From IMG/VR virus record IMGVR_UViG_3300031701_000003, positions 1 to 41,564 of that record: a stretch of 41,564 nt of DNA; one strand, written 5' to 3'. This DNA comes from a virus (lineage: Duplodnaviria; Caudoviricetes). Shown piece by piece: positions 3,550 through 25,939 of the stretch (its first letter is position 1; the number at the start of each line of letters is the position of its first letter). Position numbers and translations under genes: made by a program. The notes under the pieces were generated by a model. It did no database searches and was not told where the DNA came from. It saw nothing but the letters and a program-made list of their open reading frames with translations.

Positions 3550-5598
3550 TTACCTCACGAGATTCGAGTCCATCTGTTGACCGGCAACCGCAAGCCGCGT
3601 ATCGAATTCTTTTTTGATCGCCTCAACCGAAGCGGCGCCCGCCGCCTTGGGATCCATCACCCCCGAGATCGTTTGCGTTACCTTGAAATCAAAGTTGTTG
3701 TTCGTGATGTCGATCGCAACCGTTGGCTCGATGTCCTTGACGCTTGGAGTACGTGCGGCGATGGGTCCAAGATCACCGCGCGAAGCCTGTGCAAAGAACT
3801 CAGAGATCGACGTTGCCGATGTAACCGCGGGCTTTTTCTTTTTCTTGCCCTTCTTGCCCCCGCCGAAACGCTTGCGCGTCGTCTTGTCCGCGGCCGATAG
3901 CGACGATTCGAGCGACTTGCCCTCGGACAATCCGACCGCGACATCGTCAAGCACCGATTGTTGCCGGTCGGTTAGCTCGGCACCCTCGCGGATGTTGAGA
4001 CGTTGGCGCGCGGTCGCAAGATCCCGATCGAATTGCGCATCCTCGGCGCTCGCAATTTCCTCGCCTTGCGTGAGCCCGAGAGTATCCCGCGCGGCTCGGA
4101 CTTGCCCAAGTGAGCCGCCGCCTTGCGCGAGCAACTCGGTGGCCGCGGTGCGTTGTCGTTGCCCCTCGGCTTCCGCGTCGGCGGCCGCCTGTGCCGTGGC
4201 GCTCGCCTTGGCTCGCTCGTTCTCCCGAATAAGCCCGCGCTTTTGTGCCTGTAACTTTTCGAGATCTTTCGATGCGAGCCCGCCGACATCCGCGCCTCGC
4301 TTGCTGAGACGCTTGCGCGCCTTGGAGATCTTCTTGTCGAGAGCGAAGGCGCGGGACTGCAACGATCCGGCACCCTCGAAATCCGCCGCGCCCATCTCCT
4401 CCTCCGGCTCGACGGGCGGGGCCTTGCCTTGAGCACCGCCGAAGACTTCGCCCATCGCACGGTTGACGTCCCCGGCGATCGGGATCAACGCCATCATCGC
4501 CGTCGCAATAAGACCGATCGGTCCTAGCGCGGTACTAGCCGCGAAGCCCATAGCGCGGAGCCCCGTTGCAAGCGACGCGAACGCTTGAAAGGTTTTCGCC
4601 CCCGCGATCAAGCCGATGAAGAGCTTGAAATTGTCGACGACGAATTCGATGGTCTTCGCCGCGGTCTTGAGCGTCTCGATGAAGTCGCCTTTGAGCGCGC
4701 CGCGTAGCGTGCGGATCGCCTTGACCAAGACGCGGGCGAGCGTCTTGGCGAGCCCCTCCTTGTCTCCGCTCGCGTCGCGTAGATCCATCACGAGCGCCTT
4801 GAATTCTTCGAGCGGTCCTTGCTCCGCAATGGCCAGCATGAATTCAGAGAAAGCGTCTTGGAGATTCGAGATGATCCCGTTGAGCGTCTCCATTTGTTCG
4901 GCCATCGCGCCCGCGAAATTGTTTTCGCTAAGCCCGATCAAAAACTCTTCGATCTCCGAAGCGTTTTTGCCGACTGTCGTGGTGACACCTCGGAAGGTGA
5001 AGGAGACTTTATCTCCCTCACTTTTCGACTTGATGCCGAATTCTTTTAGCCGCTCAAATTCCCCGGTCGTTGCGTCGGCTACCGCCTCGATGAGTTGATC
5101 GAGATCCTTGCCCATCGCGGACGCGGTGTCGCCGTACGCGGTGAGGGCTCGCTCGCTCGGGTTGAGTCCGAGGTTAGTGAGTTTGATGAAGGCGCCGACA
5201 ACTTGCTCAACTTGAAACGGCGTATTCTTGGCAAACTCTCGGACGAAGCCGAAGGCTTTTTCGGCACCCTCCGCGGAGCCGGTCGCGGTCTTGAGTTGCG
5301 CGCGCAGTTTCTCGAAGTTTGCAGCGGTGCCGATCACCCCCTTGCCGAGTCCCGCGAGCACGGTGCCCGTGCCCGCGAGGATCTTTGTGAGCCCCGCCGC
5401 GAAGCTACCCGCAAGCTCGCCCGCCTTGCCTAGTCGTTGCCACGCTTGCTCGGTCTTCTCGGTCGCTTTCGTGTTTTCGTCGGCGGCTTTCTTGGCCTTG
5501 TTCAAAGCCTTGCCGATATTGTCGGCAGACTTCACCGCCTCCTTCGAGTCGACGCCGATGGCAACAAGCAATTCCGCGATTACGTTTTTACCTGCCAT
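3550..5598 (-). CDS. Tape measure protein (682 aa)
   Basis: Long Ala/Gly-rich helical protein with FAKNTPFQVEQV...YGDTASAMGK...AVADATTGEFERLKEFGI tape-measure domain. Confidence 0.9.
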   Translation of the reverse strand: MAGKNVIAELLVAIGVDSKEAVKSADNIGKALNKAKKAADENTKATEKTEQAWQRLGKAGELAGSFAAGLTKILAGTGTVLAGLGKGVIGTAANFEKLRAQLKTATGSAEGAEKAFGFVREFAKNTPFQVEQVVGAFIKLTNLGLNPSERALTAYGDTASAMGKDLDQLIEAVADATTGEFERLKEFGIKSKSEGDKVSFTFRGVTTTVGKNASEIEEFLIGLSENNFAGAMAEQMETLNGIISNLQDAFSEFMLAIAEQGPLEEFKALVMDLRDASGDKEGLAKTLARVLVKAIRTLRGALKGDFIETLKTAAKTIEFVVDNFKLFIGLIAGAKTFQAFASLATGLRAMGFAASTALGPIGLIATAMMALIPIAGDVNRAMGEVFGGAQGKAPPVEPEEEMGAADFEGAGSLQSRAFALDKKISKARKRLSKRGADVGGLASKDLEKLQAQKRGLIRENERAKASATAQAAADAEAEGQRQRTAATELLAQGGGSLGQVRAARDTLGLTQGEEIASAEDAQFDRDLATARQRLNIREGAELTDRQQSVLDDVAVGLSEGKSLESSLSAADKTTRKRFGGGKKGKKKKKPAVTSATSISEFFAQASRGDLGPIAARTPSVKDIEPTVAIDITNNNFDFKVTQTISGVMDPKAAGAASVEAIKKEFDTRLAVAGQQMDSNLVR

Positions 5599-6270: not shown

Positions 6271-6711
6271 TTACGAGCCGACTACGTTGTTGTTGAAGCC
6301 GAAAGGTTGCCGGACTTCTTGACCGAAGATCCACACCCAAGTGTAGATCGTGCTTTGCGTTCCCTTTTGCAAATTGGGGAGCGTCTTGATCCTCGCTTTG
6401 TTGTAGTACGAGATCTCTTTTGTGTTGACGTCCCACACCATGAGCGGCCCCGCGAGCGAGCGCGAGATGAGGTCCGCGTTGTGGAACGTCACAAGCTCTT
6501 GATGGGTGCGGGACTCGCCGTCGATCTGCAACGACATCTCCCCCGACTTGTCGGGGTTGAAGAGGTGCAACACCCCGCCGATCCCGTTGGGTTTCTGCGA
6601 CCACGCGTCCGCGTTTCTTGTGACTTGGAGAAAGGTTCCCTGTGCAAGTCCCGGCGTAATGTCGAGACCAAAAAAGGACACCTTGATCAAGTCGCTTGCA
6701 AACTGTCGCAT
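6271..6711 (-). CDS. Tail tube protein, paralogue 2 (146 aa)
   Basis: GLDITPGLAQGT...NPDKSGEMSLQIDGESRTHQEL, clearly homologous to the adjacent ORF. Confidence 0.7.
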   Translation of the reverse strand: MRQFASDLIKVSFFGLDITPGLAQGTFLQVTRNADAWSQKPNGIGGVLHLFNPDKSGEMSLQIDGESRTHQELVTFHNADLISRSLAGPLMVWDVNTKEISYYNKARIKTLPNLQKGTQSTIYTWVWIFGQEVRQPFGFNNNVVGS

Positions 6712-7184: not shown

Positions 7185-8225
7185 CTAGAAAGTCAAGTTC
7201 AGGTTGAAGACAACCTTTTGCACGGCGCCCGCAAGCACGGCTTCCGCTTGTAATGTGAGGAGCCGATCGATCTTGTCTTGCCCCGATACTTCCGAGGCGT
7301 CGGGGGCGGTGATGATAGGCGGCACGTCGGGCGAGAAGTGCCCGAAAGTTACGCCGCGGTTGAGCACGTCTTGCAACGCGGCGACGACGAGGTTGATCCC
7401 CGCGTTAGTGTACGGGATCTTTGTGGGTGTCCCGACCGCGAGAGCGATCCACGCTTCTTCACTTCGAGCCGTGACCCAATCGATCGACGTCGTGATGTCG
7501 ATGAAGCGGCCCGATGCCATCGTGCCCTTCGACGTAAAAGACACGCCTTTGTTCCGACCAAAGAGGTTGGCATCGACGGCGTACAAGGTCGTCGCAAATG
7601 CACCCGTTACAGCATCGAAGGGGACGGCTTCAAGCTGTCGGTACGCCCAAATTCCGGCGCCGTCCGGGGCGTCGAGATTGAGCCCGCCGCCACTCGACGA
7701 CCATGCGCCATCGAGGTACTCGCTGTCGGTGTCGTGAAAGATGCCAGCGCTTCGGTTGTACCCGAGCCCCTGCCATGCCGTGAACGCAACGAGCGTTGCG
7801 TCGTCGGACTGTCCGACGAAGATCTTGGCGCGCGTCTCAGTCCATGCGGCAACCGTTGCAAGGTCCGCGTCTAGTCGGCTTTCGATGTTGGTGATGTACC
7901 AATCGTTCGGCCCGGCCGCCTCGATGGCGGTGAGGGCAACACCGTAGTCGCCAGCGTCGGCAACGGCGAGCAAGCCGATGATCAGTTGATCGACCCCGTC
8001 GTCTTGCGCGAAGACTGCCGACGCCCATGCGTGAACCTCGGGCTCCGCGCCCGAGTCGAAGCCCGCCAACTCAACTTCGGCAAGTGAAAAGTACGGACCG
8101 TTCTGTCGATCGGTGTTGACGGTGTGCGAGAAGACACCGAGCAACGCCCCGAAGGAAAATTTCTCCACCGAAACCCCGGTGAGTGTGACGTTTACGTCGA
8201 TGAATTCGATAATTGCGGCGGGCAT
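7185..8225 (-). CDS. Contractile tail sheath protein (DUF3383-like, minimal 346 aa)
   Basis: GTMASGRFIDITTSIDW...KIPYTNAGI...LAGAVQKV C-terminal sheath motifs. Confidence 0.85.
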   Translation of the reverse strand: MPAAIIEFIDVNVTLTGVSVEKFSFGALLGVFSHTVNTDRQNGPYFSLAEVELAGFDSGAEPEVHAWASAVFAQDDGVDQLIIGLLAVADAGDYGVALTAIEAAGPNDWYITNIESRLDADLATVAAWTETRAKIFVGQSDDATLVAFTAWQGLGYNRSAGIFHDTDSEYLDGAWSSSGGGLNLDAPDGAGIWAYRQLEAVPFDAVTGAFATTLYAVDANLFGRNKGVSFTSKGTMASGRFIDITTSIDWVTARSEEAWIALAVGTPTKIPYTNAGINLVVAALQDVLNRGVTFGHFSPDVPPIITAPDASEVSGQDKIDRLLTLQAEAVLAGAVQKVVFNLNLTF

Positions 8226-16135: not shown

Positions 16136-16939
16136 TTAGACGCGGTTGATGGAAACGCGAGCAAGGCCCGGTCCCGTGGTGACGCTCCGAAATCGGATGC
16201 CGGTGAGTGCGATGGCGTCGCCGCCGTCCGCGTCAGATCGGAAGTTTCCGACCGCTTGGTTAAGTCCGGGGTTCTGCGTCCTCATGAAGACCTGACCGTT
16301 GAACGCAACCGCGTCTTCGACGGAAACAACCGTATCCCCCATCGACATCGCGGACAGGCAATTTCCAGCCGCGACACCGTTGGGATCTGGCGCAACGCCC
16401 GTTGCAACTTGAACGTCGACGACACCGCACACGAAGACGCCGAGAAAATCGGCGTCGACGGTAGCGGCTCCGGGGAGCGTTGCAAAGCCGTCACCCGAGC
16501 CGGGGACAAGCCCGACACCGATGGGCAAGAAAGTCCCGCCCGGTGCTTGCGCCGTTGCGATCGTAATGTTCGCGCCGGGGTTGCTTATCATGGTGAGCGC
16601 GTACGCGATCCCCGGGTGGATGAAGTCCAAGGTGAGGACCGGATCCGCAAGCGAAGGGACAAGGATATTTAGAAAATCCGGGTCGGCAAGGATCGCCGCC
16701 TCGATAGCTCCTAGCAACACCGCGGTCGACTCACCGCCAACGGCAACAACGTCGACGGAGAAAGTGCCCTCGGGGGCGACGATCTCCAGCGTGTACGTGC
16801 CCGCGGTTGCGACACCACCCGCGGTGAGCGTGCTTTGCTGTGCGAGCAATTCGTTGATGTAACTGTCAACGGTCCAAGGGGACGCCGTGCCAAACTGGCC
16901 AAGTTGTAGAAGGGGTCGATCGTAATTGAATTGTGGCAT
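16136..16939 (-). CDS. Capsid decoration/cement protein with inserted domain (267 aa)
   Basis: Start MPQFNY at 16939, between protease and capsid. VEDAVAFNGQVFMR...NFRSDADG C-terminus. Confidence 0.65.
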   Translation of the reverse strand: MPQFNYDRPLLQLGQFGTASPWTVDSYINELLAQQSTLTAGGVATAGTYTLEIVAPEGTFSVDVVAVGGESTAVLLGAIEAAILADPDFLNILVPSLADPVLTLDFIHPGIAYALTMISNPGANITIATAQAPGGTFLPIGVGLVPGSGDGFATLPGAATVDADFLGVFVCGVVDVQVATGVAPDPNGVAAGNCLSAMSMGDTVVSVEDAVAFNGQVFMRTQNPGLNQAVGNFRSDADGGDAIALTGIRFRSVTTGPGLARVSINRV

Positions 16940-16943
16940 CGTC

Positions 16944-18191
16944 TTAGCTCTCCGCCTTGACGGCGTTGCCGGTGTGCTTGTAGCGGTCGTGGTATGCGGT
17001 TTCGATAGCGTCGAGATCCTCGCGCTCACCCGCTTGCATGGCGTCGAAGATCACCCGCCCCGTCTCTTCGACGGCGTCGGTACGCGAGCGATGAAGGTCA
17101 AGGCACGCATCGAAGGAGGCGCGCAAATATCCGGCGTCGTTCTTGTTGGCGTCGAGTCGATCCTTGAGCCCGGGGTTGACCTTGACGATCACCGCGCGGC
17201 GGATCGCGTCGTCGGTTGCGCCGTCTGTCTTCGCGTCGGATCCGAGGATCTCCCGCGCGTCGGTCACAAGTGCAACGCGTGCGTCAATGCGTGCACCCTC
17301 GGAGTTACGGCGCGAAGTAGCGTCGGCTTCGAGTGCGTCGATCTTGGCTTGCATGGCGACGAGATCGCCGGTGTCGTTCTTGTTGGGCATGTTGTCTTCT
17401 TCGTCTTCGTCCTTGTCGGTGTCGAAGGGGAGCCCGGCGTCTACCTTGGCGGCGAGCGCCTTGGCGACCTCGGGCGCGACGTCGAAGGACTGTCCTTCGA
17501 TGTCGACCTTGACGGTGTCGGTAGTAATTTCTTCGTGTGGCATGTTGGCCTTTTGGGTGATGTTGAACGCGTCACCGCGAGCAAGCAGGAGCCGGCACTC
17601 GGGCCCGGCTCTTCCGTGATCGACGATAGCAACGTGGTTGCCTCGGATGTTTGTTTGCCTCGCGGCAAAGGTCGCACCCTCGGGGGTCGCGCCCGTGTCT
17701 CTAACTAGCGTCGCCGTATAGCCGCACGACAGTTCTGTTTTGCCTTTCTTGATCGCCGCGATCGTGTCGGCGTCGGTCACGACGATCGACGCGGCGACGT
17801 GTATGCCGTCGCGTCGGACATCGGATCCGGCGTGCCCAACTTGAACGTCTTTCACGTTGCGAGCTGTGACGAATTCCGCGGGGTGATCATTGGTCAACAC
17901 GCTCATCTCAAACGAGCGGAGCGCGTCGGGGTGGAACACTTCGACGGGGTCGCGGTACTCCCCCCAAGTGTTGCCGTCGGCGTCGCTGTAAAGCTGGACA
18001 CCCGTGCGGGAGATCTTTGCATCTACTCGAAGAAAGCCGGTGCCCGCGTCGACGCGCGCAAGCATGCCGTCTTGGCGCTCCGGGTCGAAGTGGATCTCAC
18101 CGAGTCGATCGATCCGCGTGACCGTCGATCCGTCGGCCGCGTCGAGCATCTCGACGCATGCCTCGAAACGATCGACCAAGTCCTTGCCCAC
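16944..18191 (-). CDS. Prohead protease/scaffold (DUF2213-like, 415 aa)
   Basis: ISRTGVQLY, LTNDHP, ELSCGY and NHVAIVDHGRAG motifs, with a helical scaffold C-terminus. Confidence 0.85.
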   Translation of the reverse strand: MGKDLVDRFEACVEMLDAADGSTVTRIDRLGEIHFDPERQDGMLARVDAGTGFLRVDAKISRTGVQLYSDADGNTWGEYRDPVEVFHPDALRSFEMSVLTNDHPAEFVTARNVKDVQVGHAGSDVRRDGIHVAASIVVTDADTIAAIKKGKTELSCGYTATLVRDTGATPEGATFAARQTNIRGNHVAIVDHGRAGPECRLLLARGDAFNITQKANMPHEEITTDTVKVDIEGQSFDVAPEVAKALAAKVDAGLPFDTDKDEDEEDNMPNKNDTGDLVAMQAKIDALEADATSRRNSEGARIDARVALVTDAREILGSDAKTDGATDDAIRRAVIVKVNPGLKDRLDANKNDAGYLRASFDACLDLHRSRTDAVEETGRVIFDAMQAGEREDLDAIETAYHDRYKHTGNAVKAES

Positions 18192-18263
18192 TAACCCATC
18201 CTCCGCACCGGTGCGTCTTGCTTCTCGTCGTCGAGTCGATCGACGATCGGTAAGCCCCGCGCG

Positions 18264-18503
18264 TCAGTCTTCGTCGTCGAAGTCGTCGGGGTCGTAGTCG
18301 CCGGGGTCGTAGTCGCCGGGGTCGAGGTCGGTGTTGTCTTCGGGCTCTTCATCGGTTGAGATCTCCGGGGGCTCTTCGGGCTTGCTTTCGATCTCGTGCT
18401 TGGGCTCAACCGGTACATCGATCCGCACCTTAGTCGATGGCGTTGCCGTGCTCGCTTGCAGCCGTTGGGCTCGGGTCAAGGGATAGCGGGATCGGCGTGC
18501 CAC
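18264..18503 (-). CDS. Small protein with very acidic tail (up to 79 aa), start uncertain
   Basis: Basic N-terminus and DPGDYDPGDYDPDDFDDED tail, fills the gap in the operon. Confidence 0.4.
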   Translation of the reverse strand: MARRSRYPLTRAQRLQASTATPSTKVRIDVPVEPKHEIESKPEEPPEISTDEEPEDNTDLDPGDYDPGDYDPDDFDDED

Positions 18504-18535
18504 CCTCCGAGGGTGGCCCTACTCCCGGCCCCGAG

Positions 18536-19063
18536 TCAAGGTATAGCCAACGCTTCGAGATCCTCTCGCCACACAGGAGCGACACCGGTGGGTTGCCGTC
18601 TCCACTTACATCGCCCCCATCGCACGCTTGCGGGGTGCCTACGGCCCGGGGGCGTCTCGCACAAGGTCTTAAGTTTCGACGCCGCGACCCACGCCGAAAG
18701 CATAGGGACATCGAGAACCCACGCGGGTGCACAAGGCCAGAGGAGCCGCACATGGTAGGCGGCCATGAGTCCGAAGGCCCCGCGGGTTGACCACCCCCCG
18801 GGCCCGTACGGCTGGCACGCGGGATCGATCCACCCAACGCGCGCCGCGTTGCCCCAAACCTTGCGGCTATGCCCCGCGTCGAGTTTATGTACCCCTACGG
18901 AGCCGCACGCGCCAACACCAGGGCCCCTAGACTCCCGGTGGCACACTCGGACCAATTCAACCGCGGCCGCTGTGGGGAGCCCCTGTGCCCTCACAGCGAT
19001 ATGCGCCGCAAGCTCCGGGGGAGCCGCAAGCGACGCAAGATAAACGAAGATCTCGATGAGCAT
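18536..19063 (-). CDS. Lytic transglycosylase (SLT-like) with N-terminal hydrophobic segment (175 aa)
   Basis: VCHRES (catalytic Glu-Ser) and RGAFGLM (GLMQ-like) motifs, signal/SAR-like N-terminus. Confidence 0.6.
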   Translation of the reverse strand: MLIEIFVYLASLAAPPELAAHIAVRAQGLPTAAAVELVRVCHRESRGPGVGACGSVGVHKLDAGHSRKVWGNAARVGWIDPACQPYGPGGWSTRGAFGLMAAYHVRLLWPCAPAWVLDVPMLSAWVAASKLKTLCETPPGRRHPASVRWGRCKWRRQPTGVAPVWREDLEALAIP

Positions 19064-19065
19064 GC

Positions 19066-19144
19066 CGAGGGGACAGTAAAAGCTAAACGAGTTAAGGGTA
19101 AGGATAATTGTTCTCCCCCTCGTTTAGCTTTTACTGTCCCCTCG
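19066..19144. repeat. Perfect 26-bp inverted repeat with 27-nt spacer at the late/early strand switch
   Basis: CGAGGGGACAGTAAAAGCTAAACGAG (19066-19091) and its exact reverse complement (19119-19144). Confidence 0.95.
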
Positions 19145-19184
19145 CCGTCAAGACGCCCCGTCAACCGTGCGGTGTCGGACGCGC

Positions 19185-19233
19185 AAAAAAGCCACCGACC
19201 CCCGAGTGTATGAAGACGAAGGGGGTCGGTGGC
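19185..19233 (-). ncRNA. Candidate antisense sRNA: terminator-type hairpin with loop complementary to cassette start regions
   Basis: 13-bp perfect stem (19191-19203/19221-19233) and U6 tail on the minus strand. The 17-nt loop matches GAGTGTATGAAGACRAA of the cassette starts. Confidence 0.55.
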
Positions 19234-19259
19234 CGGACCTACCCGTCGAGCATCACCAC

Positions 19260-19289
19260 GACAAGCCCCCGCACGATACACCGTGCGGG
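19260..19289 (-). promoter_or_regulatory. Palindromic element CCCGCACG-N6-CGTGCGGG plus -35-like hexamer, copy A
   Basis: 27/30 identical to 22823-22852 in inverted orientation. Followed by TTGTCG-17 nt-TAGGTC pointing at the hairpin. Confidence 0.5.
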
Positions 19290-19340
19290 CGCGTGCGTCT
19301 ATGCCCGAGATCTCGGTGGAGGATCCCCACACCCGAGGGT

Positions 19341-19389
19341 TCCGACACCGGGGGGTTGACAACCCCCCGAGCGGACTTAGATTGAGTGC
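19341..19389 (+). promoter_or_regulatory. Sigma70-type promoter in repeat copy 1 (representative of copies 1-9)
   Basis: TTGACA-16 nt-TANNNT (TAGATT/TAAGTT/TATATT), then 6 nt and ATG, with no SD. Confidence 0.8.
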
Positions 19390-19626
19390 ATGCAAGCAAT
19401 TCAAACTAAGTACCACGGCCCTACCAACCACAAGCCCTCGCGGATCTCCGCAACATGGATGGAGTCGGGCAAGCGCGTGTACGTGAGTTGGGCTTGCGAG
19501 CTAGACGTCCGCGACAACCACGAAGCGGCCGCCCGGGTCCGACTCGCCAACAACGACAAGTTCTTCGACATCGTCGGGGGATCGATCAAGAGCGGCTATG
19601 TCTGGGTGCTTGTTCAAAAGAACTAA
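19390..19626 (+). CDS. Cassette 1 hypothetical protein (78 aa)
   Basis: Exactly fills the inter-repeat space. MQAIQTKYHGPTNHKPSRISA resembles a widespread small phage protein family. Confidence 0.85.
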   Translation: MQAIQTKYHGPTNHKPSRISATWMESGKRVYVSWACELDVRDNHEAAARVRLANNDKFFDIVGGSIKSGYVWVLVQKN

Positions 19627-19674
19627 ACGACACCGGGGGGTTGACAACCCCCCGAGCGGTCTTAAGTTAGGTGT

Positions 19675-19914
19675 ATGAAGACAAACACAAACAGCTACAA
19701 CGGACACAAAAACTACGACTTTTGGAACGTGGCGCTTTGGATCGCCAACGACGAGACCATGTACAACCGCGCGCTCGCGTGTCTCAACATCCCGGGCTTT
19801 ACCACGCGCCGCGCGGCACAAGCCCTCCTTGAGATCTTCCCCACCCAAACCCCCGACGGTGCCAAGTACACGCTAGCTAACATCGAGGCCGCGATCTCGG
19901 ACCTTGCAGAATAA
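19675..19914 (+). CDS. Cassette 2 hypothetical protein (79 aa)
   Basis: Fills the inter-repeat space. YNGHKNYDFWNVALWIAND motif resembles a common phage family. Confidence 0.85.
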   Translation: MKTNTNSYNGHKNYDFWNVALWIANDETMYNRALACLNIPGFTTRRAAQALLEIFPTQTPDGAKYTLANIEAAISDLAE

Positions 19915-19963
19915 TCCGACACCGGGGGGTTGACAACCCCCCGAGCGGTCTTAAGTTAGGTGT

Positions 19964-20152
19964 ATGAAGACGAACACCACTTTCTCAGTCCTGATCCCCT
20001 TCACCGACAAGATGCCCACCAAGTGGCACCCGAGGACCATCAAGACCCTCGTGCGTGGGTGCTTCGACAGTGTCGAAGAGTGCCACGCATGGGCGGCGGC
20101 TCACCTCATGTCGTTTCACCGGTACACGATCGGCTGTTATCCGGCCGAATAA
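19964..20152 (+). CDS. Cassette 3 hypothetical protein (62 aa)
   Basis: ATG and TAA abut the flanking repeats. Confidence 0.8.
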   Translation: MKTNTTFSVLIPFTDKMPTKWHPRTIKTLVRGCFDSVEECHAWAAAHLMSFHRYTIGCYPAE

Positions 20153-20201
20153 TCCGACACCGGGGGGTTGACAACCCCCCGAGCGGACTTATATTAGGTG
20201 T

Positions 20202-20414
20202 ATGAAGACGAACACGGAAACAAAAACCCTCCCCCGATACACCAACGTCGGAAGCTACCCGATCCTGTACCTCACTCCCACAAACGACTGTCTGTGCGCG
20301 GACTGTGCCACCGAAGAGACCGAAGAGCCGGTGCAAGGTCACATCAACTACGAGACCCCTACCACGTGCGACGAGTGCGGAGACGACATCGAGGCCGCGT
20401 ACCCGACCGAATAA
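20202..20414 (+). CDS. Cassette 4 acidic zinc-finger-like protein (70 aa)
   Basis: CADC and CDEC pairs, abuts the repeats. Confidence 0.85.
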   Translation: MKTNTETKTLPRYTNVGSYPILYLTPTNDCLCADCATEETEEPVQGHINYETPTTCDECGDDIEAAYPTE

Positions 20415-20463
20415 TCCGACACCGGGGGGTTGACAACCCCCCGAGCGGTCTTATATTAGGTGT

Positions 20464-20670
20464 ATGAAGACAACAACAACAACAAACACCACCTTCCACG
20501 TCGGTAGCATCGTCCAAGTCGGGCCCGCATTCACCGGCAAGGGGTACACCGCGGACTATCTCACGGGGCGCACCGATCGCATTGTGCGGATCTCCGAAGC
20601 TGGCGACCTCGTTTTCGGTGACGACGAAGCGGCGCACGCGAGCCGGTGCTTGCTCATCTCGACCGAATAA
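20464..20670 (+). CDS. Cassette 5 small SH3/KOW-like protein (68 aa)
   Basis: FHVGSIVQV...GRTDRIVRI pattern, abuts the repeats. Confidence 0.8.
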   Translation: MKTTTTTNTTFHVGSIVQVGPAFTGKGYTADYLTGRTDRIVRISEAGDLVFGDDEAAHASRCLLISTE

Positions 20671-20719
20671 TCCGACACCGGGGGGTTGACAACCCCCCAA
20701 GCGGTCTTATATTAGGTGT

Positions 20720-21040
20720 ATGAAGACAAACACCGACACCCTCAACGACCTCGAAGCAAGCCCTACCAGCAGGATCCACGAAGCCCGGTACACGATCGCG
20801 GGCAACCCCGATCAAGACCCTCGCGAGCGCTTCACCCTCTACGCAGCCGCGAAGATCCTCGCTGAACTTGGCCGCGCGTGCAAGTCGACCGACGCCACAC
20901 ACATCCGCCGCGGTGGACGCGTGATCGGCTTTTGGAGCAACTACCACGGGACGATCCGCCCGACTCACTACACCGGACCCCGCGCGGACCGGGGCGCGCG
21001 ATCCGACGAGCAGCACGCGCTTACCATGTGGAGGATGTAA
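20720..21040 (+). CDS. Cassette 6 hypothetical protein (106 aa)
   Basis: ATG and TAA abut the flanking repeats. Confidence 0.8.
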   Translation: MKTNTDTLNDLEASPTSRIHEARYTIAGNPDQDPRERFTLYAAAKILAELGRACKSTDATHIRRGGRVIGFWSNYHGTIRPTHYTGPRADRGARSDEQHALTMWRM

Positions 21041-21088
21041 TCGACACCGGGGGGTTGACAACCCCCCGAGCGGTCTTAAGTTGAGTGT

Positions 21089-21277
21089 ATGAAGACAAAA
21101 ACTCACTGCCCCGAGCACCTCAAACCCTCAGATCGTAGGGCTCTCATCGCGTCAAGAGACGGGACGCGAGTCTCAGCCAAAGACTTCTGGAGCTTAGAGT
21201 CCCAAGGTCTCGCGGCATCATCAAGCAAGGGGTGGGGACTTACAGACCTTGGCCGGGAGATCGCAGCGCTTCAATAG
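21089..21277 (+). CDS. Cassette 7 possible winged-helix protein (62 aa)
   Basis: SLESQGLA...WGLTDLGREIA wing motif. Atypical composition and a TAG stop. Confidence 0.75.
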   Translation: MKTKTHCPEHLKPSDRRALIASRDGTRVSAKDFWSLESQGLAASSSKGWGLTDLGREIAALQ

Positions 21278-21339
21278 ACCCCACCCCTCAATCGACACCG
21301 GGGGGTTGACAACCCCCCGAGCGGTCTTAAGTTGAGTGT

Positions 21340-21648
21340 ATGAAGACAAACACCGAGCCCGCGACGATGTCGCAATGGTACCTCACCGCGATATGCGGCC
21401 ACCTCCTCACCCGCAACGGGGGCGGGGCGTACACGATCACCGCCAACCCCGAGCGCACCGAGCGAACCCCTAGCGGGATCGGGCACGTGCCCTACGCGGA
21501 CGAAGACGCGGCCGAGCGCGTCGAGAAATTCTTCGCCCGGATCTTCCCCGCCAAGAAGACCCCCCGCGTGTGCACCGGTGGGTACCCCGTGTTTCGTTGC
21601 AACCGGTGCGACGGGCACCCGCTGTACAGCGGATGCGCTTGCAAGTAA
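21340..21648 (+). CDS. Cassette 8 Cys-rich hypothetical protein (102 aa)
   Basis: Abuts the repeats, C-terminal CNRC...GCACK. Confidence 0.8.
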   Translation: MKTNTEPATMSQWYLTAICGHLLTRNGGGAYTITANPERTERTPSGIGHVPYADEDAAERVEKFFARIFPAKKTPRVCTGGYPVFRCNRCDGHPLYSGCACK

Positions 21649-21697
21649 TCCGACACCGGGGGGTTGACACCCCCCCGAGCGGTCTTAAGTTGAGTGT

Positions 21698-21892
21698 ATG
21701 AAGACAAACACACCAGACTTTTTTGACACAATCAAAACCCTCGTTTCGACGGGCCCTCGCGATGGCACCGAGTCCTTCGACGATCGCGTTGAGATGGCCC
21801 TCATCGCTGTCTCGTCCGCGTGTGCGGATGCCAATGACTTCGACGCGCGAGATCAGATCAACGCGCTCATCGTTAGGCTATTCGCAAACTAA
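21698..21892 (+). CDS. Cassette 9 hypothetical protein (64 aa)
   Basis: ATG and TAA abut the flanking repeats. Confidence 0.8.
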   Translation: MKTNTPDFFDTIKTLVSTGPRDGTESFDDRVEMALIAVSSACADANDFDARDQINALIVRLFAN

Positions 21893-21974
21893 TCGACACC
21901 GGGGGGTTGACACTCCCCACAACCGACCCATACTAGGATCAGCCGCAACAACCAACAAGGACAAGGACAAAAAC

Positions 21975-22472
21975 ATGGGACGAAGAAACTACAAGATCAT
22001 CAAGCACGAAGGCACACTCCGCGACTGTATCAGCGACGCGGGCGAGGTCGAGGATCTCCGCGAGGAGATCGAAGAGTGGAAAAGCAGTCTCGAAGATAAT
22101 TCGATGGAGCACCTCCCCAAATTCGAGGAGCTTGAAGAGTGCGCGGGAGAGCTTGAAGCGCAAGACGAGATTGAGACCCAAGCAGAGGAGCTAGCCACGG
22201 CACTTGAAGAGACACCGTGGGCGGACCTCCTCGACAAGAAGATCTCGTATACAAACATGCAACCGTACAAGGGGCGCGGATACCCTCGATGGATGCGCAT
22301 GAGCAACTCACTCGCGGCGATGCGTGCGGCACTCGAAGAGCTAGGCGATCTAACCGTCCCCGAGGGGGACGAAAAAGCCGACGAGCAACACACCGAGATT
22401 GAGTCCGCGGTGCAAGAGCTTGAAGCAACTTGCGAGCAACTTGAGGGTGTTTGCTTTCCCTCGATGTTCTAG
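21975..22472 (+). CDS. Highly acidic helical protein (165 aa)
   Basis: ATG after CAAGGACAAGGACAAAAAC, downstream of degenerate repeat 10 (TTGACA-16-CATACT). Glu/Asp-rich. Confidence 0.8.
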   Translation: MGRRNYKIIKHEGTLRDCISDAGEVEDLREEIEEWKSSLEDNSMEHLPKFEELEECAGELEAQDEIETQAEELATALEETPWADLLDKKISYTNMQPYKGRGYPRWMRMSNSLAAMRAALEELGDLTVPEGDEKADEQHTEIESAVQELEATCEQLEGVCFPSMF

Positions 22473-22532
22473 GCCACGCGCACCGATCGACCCTCGGTCC
22501 GTACCCCGCAAGGGGTCGGGCTTTCGGAGGTG

Positions 22533-22748
22533 ATGAAGACCAAGAAGAAACCCCCCCCACGCCTTGCCGCGAACCTCACGATCCTACGCGAGAAATCCGG
22601 CTTAACTCAAGAAGGGCTCGCAACGATCCTCGGGGTAACGCGCGCGTGGGTCTCCAAGATCGAAACCGGCCACGGGTTGCCGAGCCTCGCGCGCACCGTC
22701 GAGATCGCCAACGTCTTCAAGGTGACGATCGATCGGTTGGTGACATGA
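22533..22748 (+). CDS. XRE-family helix-turn-helix regulator (71 aa)
   Basis: NLTILREKSGLTQEGLATILGVTRAWVSKIETG...PSL...IANVFKVTIDRL, classic HTH_3 with no S24 peptidase domain. Confidence 0.9.
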   Translation: MKTKKKPPPRLAANLTILREKSGLTQEGLATILGVTRAWVSKIETGHGLPSLARTVEIANVFKVTIDRLVT

Positions 22749-22817
22749 GCCACGCGGCCGCACGCGCCCCGGTGCGCCGCGCCCCGCGGGGGGCCCTCGT
22801 TGGGTAGCCTCGAAACA

Positions 22818-22853
22818 AAGCCCCCGCACGGTGGACCGTGCGGGGGCTTGACC
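22818..22853 (+). promoter_or_regulatory. Palindromic element copy B (15-bp arms) upstream of replication operon, operator and/or terminator
   Basis: AAGCCCCCGCACGGT-GG-ACCGTGCGGGGGCTT overlapping TTGACC, then 18 nt and CAGACT. Confidence 0.55.
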
Positions 22854-22951
22854 CCGGCGCAAGCGTTGGGGCAGACTGTCGGCTCTTCTAACCGCCCCGA
22901 GGGTGCCCGACTTGGGACCGGGGCGCAAGCCCCCATGCCAACCGGATCTCA

Positions 22952-25939
22952 ATGCCCCTAGACTGGCAAGCGTTCGATGTTGCGTCCGAGATCTTTGGGC
23001 TCGCGGGGTTCAACGTGATCCCCTTGCCACCGCAAGCCAAAGGGCTCGCGGGGTCGGGCGTTCTTTTCAAGCATCTCAACAAGCCCGACTCCCGACGCGT
23101 GACCGCGGACGATCGCGCGAAGTGGCGACGCACCTTCGAGCGCAAGGGCTTCGACGGTGTTGTTGGCGCGTACCTTTTGCCCGCGTCGGGGCAGCATTAC
23201 GCAATGGCGATCGTCGACGTCGACGATGAAGCCTTCGACGCGCGAGCGGTCGAAGTCTTTGGGGACTCCCCGGTGTACGTCACGCGCTCCGGTCGAGTGC
23301 GGCACCGGTACTTCAAAACGAAGCACCCAAAGCGCGCGCATCTCATGGGCGCCTTCGGCAAGCGCACCGTCGATCTCATCGCTACCACCGGCGTCGTCTT
23401 GCCGGGGTCGGTGCATGCGGACGGCGGCACGTACACGATGCACGGCAACCTCGACGACCTCCCCGAGATCGACCTCGGGCACGTCGAGAAACTACGCACC
23501 GAGCGACGCGGAAAGATCAAGACCGATCTTGCATCCGCGGAGCCGGTCGAGGGTAGCGCGGTCGGCTTCGTGCACGTCCGAGATCCGTTAGACTTTGGGG
23601 ACTCTGTATGGTGCGGGCACGTCTTGCCGGCCACGTTGATCAACACGATCGACGGGCCGGTTGAAATGCGGAGCGTGAGCGCGGGCGCCAAGTGTTTCGC
23701 AACGTACCGCGACGACGCACACCCGTCCTCGCACGTGTCCGACTACAAGGGGCGCCGATACTTTTGGGACATGTCCACCGAGCCAAAAAGATATTGGACA
23801 ATGATCGACGCGCTCGACAGTGCGACAGATCCACAACTTGAGCGCGACACCGTTGCGGCACTCGAAGCCGGGCTCCGAGATCGACTCGGTGTCGAGGTCG
23901 AGATCGTCGACGACACCGGATACCTAGCCGACCAAGTGCCGATGCTTGGAGACGACGAAACGGTTTTCGTGATCGCCCCGCACGGGTCGGGCAAGACAGT
24001 GATGGCAAGACGCGAGCACGACCGGGCGACGACGTCGATCTCGGTGTGCAACACGCAAGCCCTAACGCTAGCCAACGCAAGCGTGCTCGGCTTGCGTCCG
24101 GTGTACGAAGGGGTCGACGCGCACCCCAAGGGGTCGGCCTGTATTCCGTCGCTCCATCGGTACGACGCACCGCCCGAGTTTTTCCACGTCGACGAAGCGG
24201 ACGCGGTGCACGGTTTCTTGCACTCGGGCAAGGTCGACGATCCGCTTGGAGCGTGGCGCGTGCTTGCATACTTCGCGGCACTGTCGAAGCGTTGTTTGAT
24301 GTCGAGCGCCGATCTCAGTTTCGAGGACATCGCACTCTTCGTACATGCGATCCGCGAACGCAACGCGGCGCGCCGGCTTCGAGTGATCATCCGCGTCCCA
24401 ACGCGGACGCGGTGCACGCTCGTCGTACGTCCCACGGCTTTCGTCAAACAAGAATTGCACGCGCACCTCGACGAGCAACAAGAGCACCCGACTTTTGTGG
24501 GCATCACAACGCGCAAGCTCGCGGGACAGATCGCGCAAGGGTACAAGTCGATCGGAGCACACGAAACGATCGATCTCGACGAGGTCTCGACGCTCACCTC
24601 GGTCGTCGACTCACCGCGCCCGTACCCCTTGGCGGATGTTGCCGACGACATCGACGACGAGATCACAACCGAGGTCGTTGCGCCGTTCTTTGTGAGCGGT
24701 GAAAACAACCGGTACAGCGAAGCGGTGCGATGGCTCGCGGATACTCGGTCGCTCGTCGAGTCGCACGATCTGATCGTGACCTCGCCCGCGGTACAGTCCG
24801 GCGTCTCTTTGGACCCTGAGATCTCGCGCGTGTTTATCTTCCACGGCAACCGGGACATCCCCGCGGATGCTGTCTTGCAGATCGCCCGACGCGCACGCAA
24901 CCCGATCGACGCGGGCATCCTTGTCGGGGTGCCTCGATGGGTAGCGCAACCGCACCGCACAGATCGGCCGTATCTCGACGACCTCGTTGCGAAGCGGAGC
25001 CGCACGACAGTGCGCGCGATTGCACAATCGTTTCCCGACTTCGTGCACGACACCGAGACCGATCAAGAATTCTTATGGTCTTGGCGGATCACCGCTCGCA
25101 AGTCGCTGCGCTCGTACGCCGATCCGATCGGTGAGCTTGAGCGAAGCGCAAGGCGCCACGGTTGGGACGTCGATGTCGACCTTGACGAAGAAGGAGACGG
25201 CGAGGAATTCAACGCGATCGTCTCGGCCGCCAAGGTGCATCGAGCACTGATCAACGCCGACGAAGTTGTACGCGCCGACGACATCGAGTCCGGTGAGCGC
25301 GATCGACTTGAGCGAGCCGCGGAGCTTGCCGATGGTGAGCGCCAACAACTGGACAAAGCTACCCTCGGCGTGTTCTATGGAATGGAGGTGACACCCGAGC
25401 TTGTGATCTTAGACAACGCGGGACGCTATCGGGCGAAGGTCCGGGCCTACGTGCACGCGCGCTTGCTCGTCGAGTTGCCCGACGTCGTCGCGTATCACGA
25501 TCACCAACGCGCACGCGGTCGACAGCCAACCGAGTTGTCCCACGCGTACGCGAAGGCGTCGTTGATGGTCGATCTCCTCACGCATATCTTCGACGGCTTC
25601 GACGGTGAGGAGATCGACTTCGATGTCCGCACCGTGCGAGCCCCGGTCCGCGCATGGTGGGGACGCAACCGGGAGCGCGCGCAAACTTTCTTCCCCCGAC
25701 TCAAAGGACCGAGCAAAGACAAGGAGGTGCGGTGGCTTGGAGATCGTCTCAGATCCCTCGGCGCCGTACTCCTCACGCACGGCAAGAACACAAACCGAAG
25801 CAAGCGCGTATCGTGGCTTCGAGTCGACGCGTTGGCGGGTGCCTACGCGGAGCGACTCGTCGAAGCACACGACAAGATCGAGGACGAAAAGTGGAGGACG
25901 CAATGGAAAAAAGAAGCATCACAAACAAGCTCGGCATAG
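22952..25939 (+). CDS. Bifunctional primase-polymerase fused to SF2 origin-binding-type helicase (995 aa)
   Basis: N-terminal GFNVIPL, VDVDD, HRYF and VVLPGSVH (PrimPol). Central APHGSGKT, VDEAD, SPAVQSGVSLD and QIARRARN (SF2, UL9/CyRepA1-like). Confidence 0.75.
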   Translation: MPLDWQAFDVASEIFGLAGFNVIPLPPQAKGLAGSGVLFKHLNKPDSRRVTADDRAKWRRTFERKGFDGVVGAYLLPASGQHYAMAIVDVDDEAFDARAVEVFGDSPVYVTRSGRVRHRYFKTKHPKRAHLMGAFGKRTVDLIATTGVVLPGSVHADGGTYTMHGNLDDLPEIDLGHVEKLRTERRGKIKTDLASAEPVEGSAVGFVHVRDPLDFGDSVWCGHVLPATLINTIDGPVEMRSVSAGAKCFATYRDDAHPSSHVSDYKGRRYFWDMSTEPKRYWTMIDALDSATDPQLERDTVAALEAGLRDRLGVEVEIVDDTGYLADQVPMLGDDETVFVIAPHGSGKTVMARREHDRATTSISVCNTQALTLANASVLGLRPVYEGVDAHPKGSACIPSLHRYDAPPEFFHVDEADAVHGFLHSGKVDDPLGAWRVLAYFAALSKRCLMSSADLSFEDIALFVHAIRERNAARRLRVIIRVPTRTRCTLVVRPTAFVKQELHAHLDEQQEHPTFVGITTRKLAGQIAQGYKSIGAHETIDLDEVSTLTSVVDSPRPYPLADVADDIDDEITTEVVAPFFVSGENNRYSEAVRWLADTRSLVESHDLIVTSPAVQSGVSLDPEISRVFIFHGNRDIPADAVLQIARRARNPIDAGILVGVPRWVAQPHRTDRPYLDDLVAKRSRTTVRAIAQSFPDFVHDTETDQEFLWSWRITARKSLRSYADPIGELERSARRHGWDVDVDLDEEGDGEEFNAIVSAAKVHRALINADEVVRADDIESGERDRLERAAELADGERQQLDKATLGVFYGMEVTPELVILDNAGRYRAKVRAYVHARLLVELPDVVAYHDHQRARGRQPTELSHAYAKASLMVDLLTHIFDGFDGEEIDFDVRTVRAPVRAWWGRNRERAQTFFPRLKGPSKDKEVRWLGDRLRSLGAVLLTHGKNTNRSKRVSWLRVDALAGAYAERLVEAHDKIEDEKWRTQWKKEASQTSSA

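Follow-up and report, generated by a model that had tools for sequence, protein, structure and literature searches.

Why should the loop of a terminator-like hairpin in a phage genome repeat the start of a row of neighbouring small genes? The window analysed here is a whole virus record of 41,564 nt. Based on its ORF annotation, it has the gene content of a phage, with genes for tail sheath, baseplate, head, terminase and DNA polymerase; a PD-(D/E)XK exonuclease is also encoded. The structural genes are found on the minus strand, from 19063 leftwards, and the replication genes on the plus strand, from 22952. The latter position begins the gene of a 995-aa Prim-Pol/helicase-like protein (22952-25939) with 28 metagenomic homologues, some on contigs of 40-43 kb, and without a match in cultured phage records. 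A blastn comparison with cultured phages gave a single match, inside cassette 2 of the gene row. The phage group therefore appears to be uncultured and myovirus-like. The best DNA matches to the window are seawater metagenomes, and none of the six listed runs holding window DNA is an RNA run.

Between the structural and replication blocks, a 44-nt repeat occurs ten times (19343-21894), each time heading a small gene. In cassettes 1-9, the layout is TTGACA, 16 nt, a TAnnnT hexamer, 6 nt and ATG, with a stem-loop over the -35 box within each promoter repeat; this hairpin has no U-tail. In cassettes 2-5 (19900-20670), a GAATAA end (E-stop) adjoins the repeat, which spans the stop as well as the start codon. 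One cargo gene, that of cassette 2, encodes a DUF7249 protein whose homologues in cultured phages stand in rows of small, separately spaced genes. The array was therefore read as early genes, which is likely what the cassettes hold. The stretch CCCACCCCTCAATCGAC in front of repeat 8 (21279-21295) also precedes a hairpin element of the relative L013 (7779-7795).

On the other side of the hairpin, the minus-strand block begins with a conserved gene for a 175-aa protein with 14 homologues. In the Atlas it resembles, at 0.94, SLT transglycosylases as well as unnamed clusters, two of them mostly from Myxococcota, which can serve as a lead only, for function and for host. Directly before its ATG lies a perfect 26-bp inverted repeat with a 27-nt spacer (19066-19144). 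L013 has a similar inverted repeat in the same place (6367-6438) with many bases changed; an origin, a packaging site or a translational lock are candidate roles.

The hairpin itself has a perfect 13-bp stem (19191-19203 with 19221-19233) and a 17-nt loop that reads GAGTGTATGAAGACGAA on the plus strand. On the minus strand, the G+C-rich stem is followed by U6, where a 14th pair (G-U) is possible, as expected for an intrinsic terminator. The stem, the adjacent A6 and the minus-strand polarity described in the preliminary description are thus confirmed by the sequence. At 17 nt, the loop is longer than the 3-8 nt by which the consensus scan defines a short-loop terminator, and that scan missed the hairpin. 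Contigs of runs X1 (18818-19370; possibly the source sample) and X2 (19119-19334) span it without a difference, so an assembly error does not account for it; a contig of X3 covers it up to 19227. The minus-strand loop is pyrimidine-rich and predicted to be mostly unpaired, while four bases of the plus-strand loop are almost always paired. A search of the hairpin region against Rfam gave nothing above the gathering score. U-turn motifs in the loop proved too common for counting. An origin of the whole hairpin as a collapsed repeat with its -35 and -10 boxes deleted was also discarded, the score of the stem arm against the repeat being reached by 1296 of 3000 shuffled arms.

The loop matches the starts of eight cassettes. 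Fifteen contiguous bases agree with cassettes 3 and 4 (19958, 20196), 16 of 17 bases with cassettes 7-9 (21083, 21334, 21692), and 14, 13 and 14 of 17 bases with cassettes 2, 5 and 6, respectively; the counts for cassettes 3, 4 and 7-9 had been proposed from inspection and were found again on recounting. The window holds nine copies of GTGTATGAAGAC (the loop and eight cassettes), against none in 100 shuffles. Shuffling the loop 20,000 times never gave 15 contiguous matches (the maximum of 14 came up once), and elsewhere in the window, beyond 19150-22000, 17-mers had at most 13. The match is therefore beyond chance and due to copying, selection or both. It stops exactly at both stem edges. Since it is confined to the loop and the stem arm is not repeat-like, a copy of a start site appears to have been set into a separately built terminator. 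Among 22 long-loop terminator-like hairpins in the window, only this one matches the starts by more than 6 nt. A weak 8-bp hairpin in a coding region near 16284 has a 9-nt match (1/361), indicating that matches of 9 nt can come by chance. At +9, the loop carries the minority allele, present in only two of the eight cassettes, and cassette 3 of a relative has the non-matching allele.

Not every gene of the region shares this start. As noted before, cassette 1 does not match and the HTH gene begins like the cassettes. The gene of cassette 1 begins ATGCAAGC and agrees with the loop only upstream of its ATG; the HTH gene begins ATGAAGAC, a start that is changed in a relative of about 90% identity. 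Cassette 10 was considered as a further target and dropped; its homologues begin MARR, MGRR or MGKK, so its start is a family trait. The suggestion that one RNA silences the whole bank at once is not supported: cassettes 1 and 10 lack a site and the HTH start differs in the relative. Just before the HTH gene, a nested hairpin ending CGGGC(T/A)TT(C)GG (22490-22530) has counterparts before gene starts in L013 (7790-7830) and L018 (about 21630-21690); the 3' motif is common to the three and the stems differ, making it a candidate cis-regulatory RNA. All features are listed in Table 1.

Table 1. Positions of the hairpin, the predicted RNA, the promoter repeats and the neighbouring genes in the window
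Feature	Position	Strand	Remark
U6 tail of intrinsic-terminator-type hairpin (A6 on plus strand)	19185..19190	-	read from the sequence
Hairpin at the 3' end of the predicted RNA: perfect 13-bp stem, 17-nt loop	19191..19233	-	fold z -4.09 for 19183-19267
Loop UUCGUCUUCAUACACUC, complement of positions -6..+11 at the cassette starts	19204..19220	-	leaderless 5' ends would find a partner in its first 11 nt
Predicted small RNA of about 80 nt	19185..19266	-	ends inferred from promoter candidate and fold
Candidate sigma70-type promoter TAGACG-17-TATCGT (8/12)	19273..19301	-	predicted start near 19266
Palindrome CCCGCACG-N6-CGTGCGGG, overlapping the candidate promoter	19268..19289	.	candidate protein-binding site
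Palindrome twin, perfect 14-bp arms	22818..22849	.	between HTH gene and primase-helicase gene
Antisense promoter-like site TTGTCA-17-TATTCT (9/12) inside repeat 3	19908..19936	-	RNA of about 720 nt to the same terminator possible
Promoter repeat 1 (TTGACA-16-TAGATT)	19343..19389	+	cassette 1 gene 19390-19626; start without loop match
Repeat 2 and target start	19628..19688	+	ATG 19675; DUF7249 gene
Repeat 3 and target start	19917..19977	+	ATG 19964; 11-bp match
Repeat 4 and target start	20155..20215	+	ATG 20202; 11-bp match
Repeat 5 and target start	20417..20477	+	ATG 20464
Repeat 6 and target start	20673..20733	+	ATG 20720
Repeat 7 and target start	21042..21102	+	ATG 21089
Repeat 8 and target start	21293..21353	+	ATG 21340
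Repeat 9 and target start	21651..21711	+	ATG 21698
Divergent repeat 10 and leadered gene (165 aa)	21894..22472	+	ATG 21975; no target
HTH gene (Xre/Cro-type), starts ATGAAGAC	22533..22748	+	doubtful target
Conserved 175-aa gene (SLT-like lead)	18536..19063	-	opens the minus-strand block, which would be insulated by the terminator

It had been proposed that a small RNA explains why unrelated cassette proteins all begin MKT. The array argues otherwise. When cassettes 2-9 are compared, 40 of 47 columns upstream of the ATG and 8 of 11 downstream of it do not vary, and the similarity ends at +14, so that conservation at the start does not exceed that of the remainder of the repeat. The homogenised repeat takes in the first codons and, in cassettes 2-5, also the stop codon of the gene ahead; being inside this repeat, the MKT start needs no sRNA. 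A relative in run X5 keeps the same 10-nt start with other cargo, i.e. 143 other letters between this start and the next repeat, as seen on a single contig of depth 2.9 with a 31-nt side. One permuted joint in X2 could likewise point to cargo exchange, but is perhaps an assembly effect. Cultured phages also share starts in part: ATGGCTA opens 5 of 27 listed genes in the array of L161 and 6 of 25 in that of L162, without a matching hairpin. Among 62 leaderless starts elsewhere, 25 have a lysine codon in second place, partly by record selection. An sRNA would exploit the shared start and not cause it.

What could the loop pair with? The ATG stands 6 nt past the -10 hexamer, which puts its A at the usual +1, and the mRNAs of cassettes 1-9 are therefore probably leaderless. 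The same pattern (TTGACA-N16-18-TAnnnT-N6-ATG) is frequent in the uncultured phage records G001-G005, with 54 matches against 0 in a reversed control, and 53 of 62 starts are at exactly 6 nt, in records that were chosen for holding one leaderless start and of which four are fragmentary. Leaderless mRNAs depend on a 5'-terminal start codon, as described in the accessible text of PMC4007540. The six loop bases that correspond to positions upstream of the ATG fall past the -10 hexamer but ahead of the point where transcription is predicted to begin. Messages from the cassettes' own promoters would omit -6 to -1, so only the first 8-11 loop bases have a partner. The pairing of 15-17 bp envisaged earlier would then shrink to 11 bp in cassettes 3 and 4 (computed at -15.0 kcal/mol) and to 8 bp in the other six targets (-10.8 kcal/mol), compared with -2.3 for cassette 1 and with -20.7 to -24.9 kcal/mol for the full 17 bases. 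The limit of 8 bp in these six of the eight targets is due to the minority +9 allele of the loop.

By prediction, both the seed and the translation starts are accessible. Freeing bases 1-11 would cost 0.2-1.8 kcal/mol in the eight matched cassettes and 5.7 in the unmatched cassette 1. Among 160 genome sites scanned, 23 others pair with the 11-mer more strongly than the six majority starts, though internal sites are poorer targets. When the RNA (83 nt) was cofolded with gene starts, the loop stayed unused in the two structures printed, and the values for the cassettes (-4.3 to -15.7) overlapped those of 38 other gene starts (-0.1 to -16.4), so that the cassettes were not singled out by models that handle loop pairing badly.

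A minus-strand RNA that displays the loop had been suggested, and this suggestion stands in part: the terminator polarity, the open loop and a candidate promoter 40-70 nt upstream agree with it, while the RNA keeps the rank of a prediction. In its predicted form of about 80 nt, it folds into two hairpins with an open loop (z -4.09). The candidate promoter came from a relaxed scan. Shuffling the 109 nt upstream produced such a site in 41 of 3000 trials, and the minus strand as a whole has 12; the threshold was fixed after the site had been seen, so this statistic is modest support. A second promoter, TTGTCG-17-TAGGTC at 19264-19236, was set aside with only 6/12, as was a kissing contact of the main loop with the loop at 19276-19281, since bases 19276-19281 also serve as the -10 box and precede the predicted RNA start. 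The palindrome over the candidate promoter gave four strand matches, at two sites only in the window, and none in 100 shuffles. The position of its twin, before the replication genes, suggests that the two may be controlled together, perhaps by the HTH protein.

Taken together, the loop-start arrangement seems real, non-random and unusual, and a regulatory function is plausible, as judged from one genome. With a probability of about 0.5, the hairpin belongs to a minus-strand antisense RNA that acts as a brake on the leaderless early mRNAs of eight cassettes. The repeats would serve as host sigma70 promoters with the RNA starting at the A of the AUG, and the weak, palindrome-overlapped promoter at 19301-19273 would make the small RNA, perhaps with the replication wave. 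This RNA would end at the hairpin and would use its open loop to bind the mRNA over its first 8-11 bases. Unlike internal sites, which can only kiss, a free 5' end is able to wind through a closed loop; our literature search gave no paper on such winding. The mRNA end would do so here, and the other six loop bases would act as a linker across the helix. The pairing would cover the 5'-terminal AUG, which is not known to be backed by any further signal on leaderless mRNAs, and would block loading of the 70S ribosome, so that leaderless AUGAAGAC messages would lose expression. The same hairpin would also keep antisense transcription out of the late genes. One observation against this reading is that the loop bases for -6 to -1 are partnerless on a leaderless mRNA, yet kept. 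As the tag is placed inside a recombining repeat, new cargo would enter the regulon automatically. The wider proposal, in which the repeat stamps captured genes with a leaderless tag and one terminator-loop sRNA caps them all as a protein-free off-switch, falls somewhat short of an even chance. Such an RNA would perhaps also reach host leaderless mRNAs with the same start.

Relatives holding both the array and the loop were sought with DNA patterns in viral contigs and with the helicase and the SLT-like protein, and none was found. The protein searches gave L001, L002 (L017 being the same region), L012-L016, L018, L140 and L163. L001, L002, L013 and L018, which cover the region (helicase identity 30-61%), have neither a promoter array nor a loop-start hairpin; L012, L014-L016, L140 and L163 are too short on the array side. 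A variant contig of X5 ends at 19204 and has 11 differences, of which eight are listed, so that it gives no information on the loop. A comparable hairpin was absent from 121 loci with a leaderless ATGAAGAC start in 17 of 64 collection parts; ten of these loci have at least three such promoters, with a best loop match of 9-10 nt to a single start. In five other leaderless-array records (four fragmentary), 0 of 73 hairpins match starts by 8 nt. Early regions of 22-24 kb from four cultured phages hold 297 hairpins, the best of which matches 4 of 27 starts at 8 nt, and none is comparable. Two of the relatives have unusual repeats of their own. L001 carries two near-perfect palindromes of 110 nt (4766-4875 and 5481-5590) in flip/flop arrangement, 715 nt apart, which resemble hairpin-end or origin sequences, and L013 has, in place of a tandem array, a divergent gene pair whose 83-nt leader is duplicated in inverted orientation (7364-7586).

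The array-less L013 also has a minus-strand terminator, with a tetraloop, 130 nt from the conserved inverted repeat versus 41 nt in the window, and termination alone therefore accounts for stem and tail. This leads to a plainer explanation, which is possible although rather unlikely: the hairpin would insulate the SLT-like gene and the late block from antisense transcription arising in the palindromic repeats, and its loop would be a recently captured 17-nt copy of a start without a pairing role, still similar because the capture is recent or because conversion with the array preserves the likeness. Besides the terminator at a comparable place in L013, the antisense promoter-like site in repeat 3, the six loop bases partnerless on a leaderless mRNA, the minority +9 allele and the lack of such a hairpin in nine other cassette phages fit this explanation, and a strongly homogenised array in a phage encoding a PD-(D/E)XK exonuclease would suit the capture of a copy. 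A 17-nt loop, however, far exceeds the need of a terminator. The copy fills it from edge to edge and is oriented antisense on the terminated strand, the stem is not derived from the repeat, and a candidate promoter lies just upstream, all of which speak against a plain terminator.

Three further explanations would put the loop to another use. The loop might act on read-through or long antisense RNA, where its 17 bases would pair with internal copies of the repeat and lead to cleavage or early termination. This would account for the kept bases at -6 to -1, the full pairing is much stronger on paper, and read-through is plausible since the repeat's own hairpin lacks a U-tail. Nevertheless, it is improbable: a 14-bp G+C stem closes the loop and thereby limits long internal pairing topologically, and internal starts without a Shine-Dalgarno sequence are expected to be translated poorly anyway. 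A plus-strand decoy RNA, a DNA recombination guide or a vestigial cassette with a 49-codon ORF at 19210 is quite improbable as well. The plus-strand loop would display the AUG and the shared start, and cassettes seem to exchange cargo. Even under relaxed settings, however, no plus-strand promoter was found upstream, the tail has minus-strand polarity and the plus-strand loop is partly paired; no recombinase family was detected among the 55 ORFs scanned, and the 49-codon ORF has no TAA end before the next repeat, unlike cassettes 1-6, 8 and 9. Finally, the RNA could act on DNA, with the loop pairing to the non-template strand of the promoter bubble and blocking promoter escape. Positions -6 to +11 are roughly the part that is melted in initial transcription and free of sigma region 2. 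All 17 bases would be used, no leader would be needed, and the match is centred on the predicted start site. Still, this is very improbable, as the non-template strand is largely enclosed by RNA polymerase, no effector-like protein is encoded near the hairpin, and the palindrome over the -35 box is already usable by a protein repressor.

The shutdown of strong early promoter banks in lytic phages is mostly explained by proteins. If true, a single RNA directed against a repeat-built tag would be a new and simple way of turning down early genes, and an example of natural antisense control by capping of leaderless 5' ends. If the loop is inert, it is a warning that copying alone can yield loop-start matches in cassette arrays. 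In the literature searched (mostly non-subscription, main texts), no description was found of one phage RNA acting on the shared leaderless starts of a cassette array.

Parts of the arrangement are nevertheless familiar. According to the accessible text of PMC2839356, the PeSL cassettes of T4-type phages combine a repeated sigma70 promoter and a G/C stem-loop before small ORFans, and act as recombination sites for cargo exchange. The array described here resembles them, with ten repeats that place a sigma70 promoter and a stem-loop over the -35 box before small genes. However, PeSLs are described there as ending in a Shine-Dalgarno sequence and a start codon, whereas here there is no leader and the repeat extends over about the first 14 nt of the gene; the main text of that paper, as far as accessible, never uses the word 'antisense'. 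In the Cuckoo/CcsR sRNAs of Alphaproteobacteria, as portrayed in the available part of PMC4615179, a loop is likewise complementary to a start signal common to many mRNAs. These are bacterial RNAs of 2-4 hairpins with CCUCCUCCC anti-Shine-Dalgarno loops, compared with one phage hairpin against the AUG and first codons here; the loop differs from CCUCCUCCC and there is no Rfam match. SviR of the PLE satellite (bioRxiv 10.1101/2022.04.08.487710, accessible text) is a single sRNA of a viral element that regulates several viral mRNAs, as the RNA proposed here would. It serves in a conflict of satellite versus phage and uses distinct seeds, and a repeat-borne shared tag is not part of the system as that text presents it. 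The C4 antisense RNA of phages P1 and P7 is similar in that a structured phage RNA of about 77 nt pairs its loops with the translation start of its own mRNA, following the part of PMC5320573 available. The same text gives features that only C4 has, namely three stem-loops with two recognition loops, processing by RNase P, a role in lysogeny and immunity, and occlusion of the ribosome-binding site. The Rfam model of C4 had no match in 18000-23200 at E<=5, and two hairpins are predicted here versus three in C4. Unlike C4, the RNA proposed here would use one loop, placed in a terminator, for eight predicted leaderless targets.
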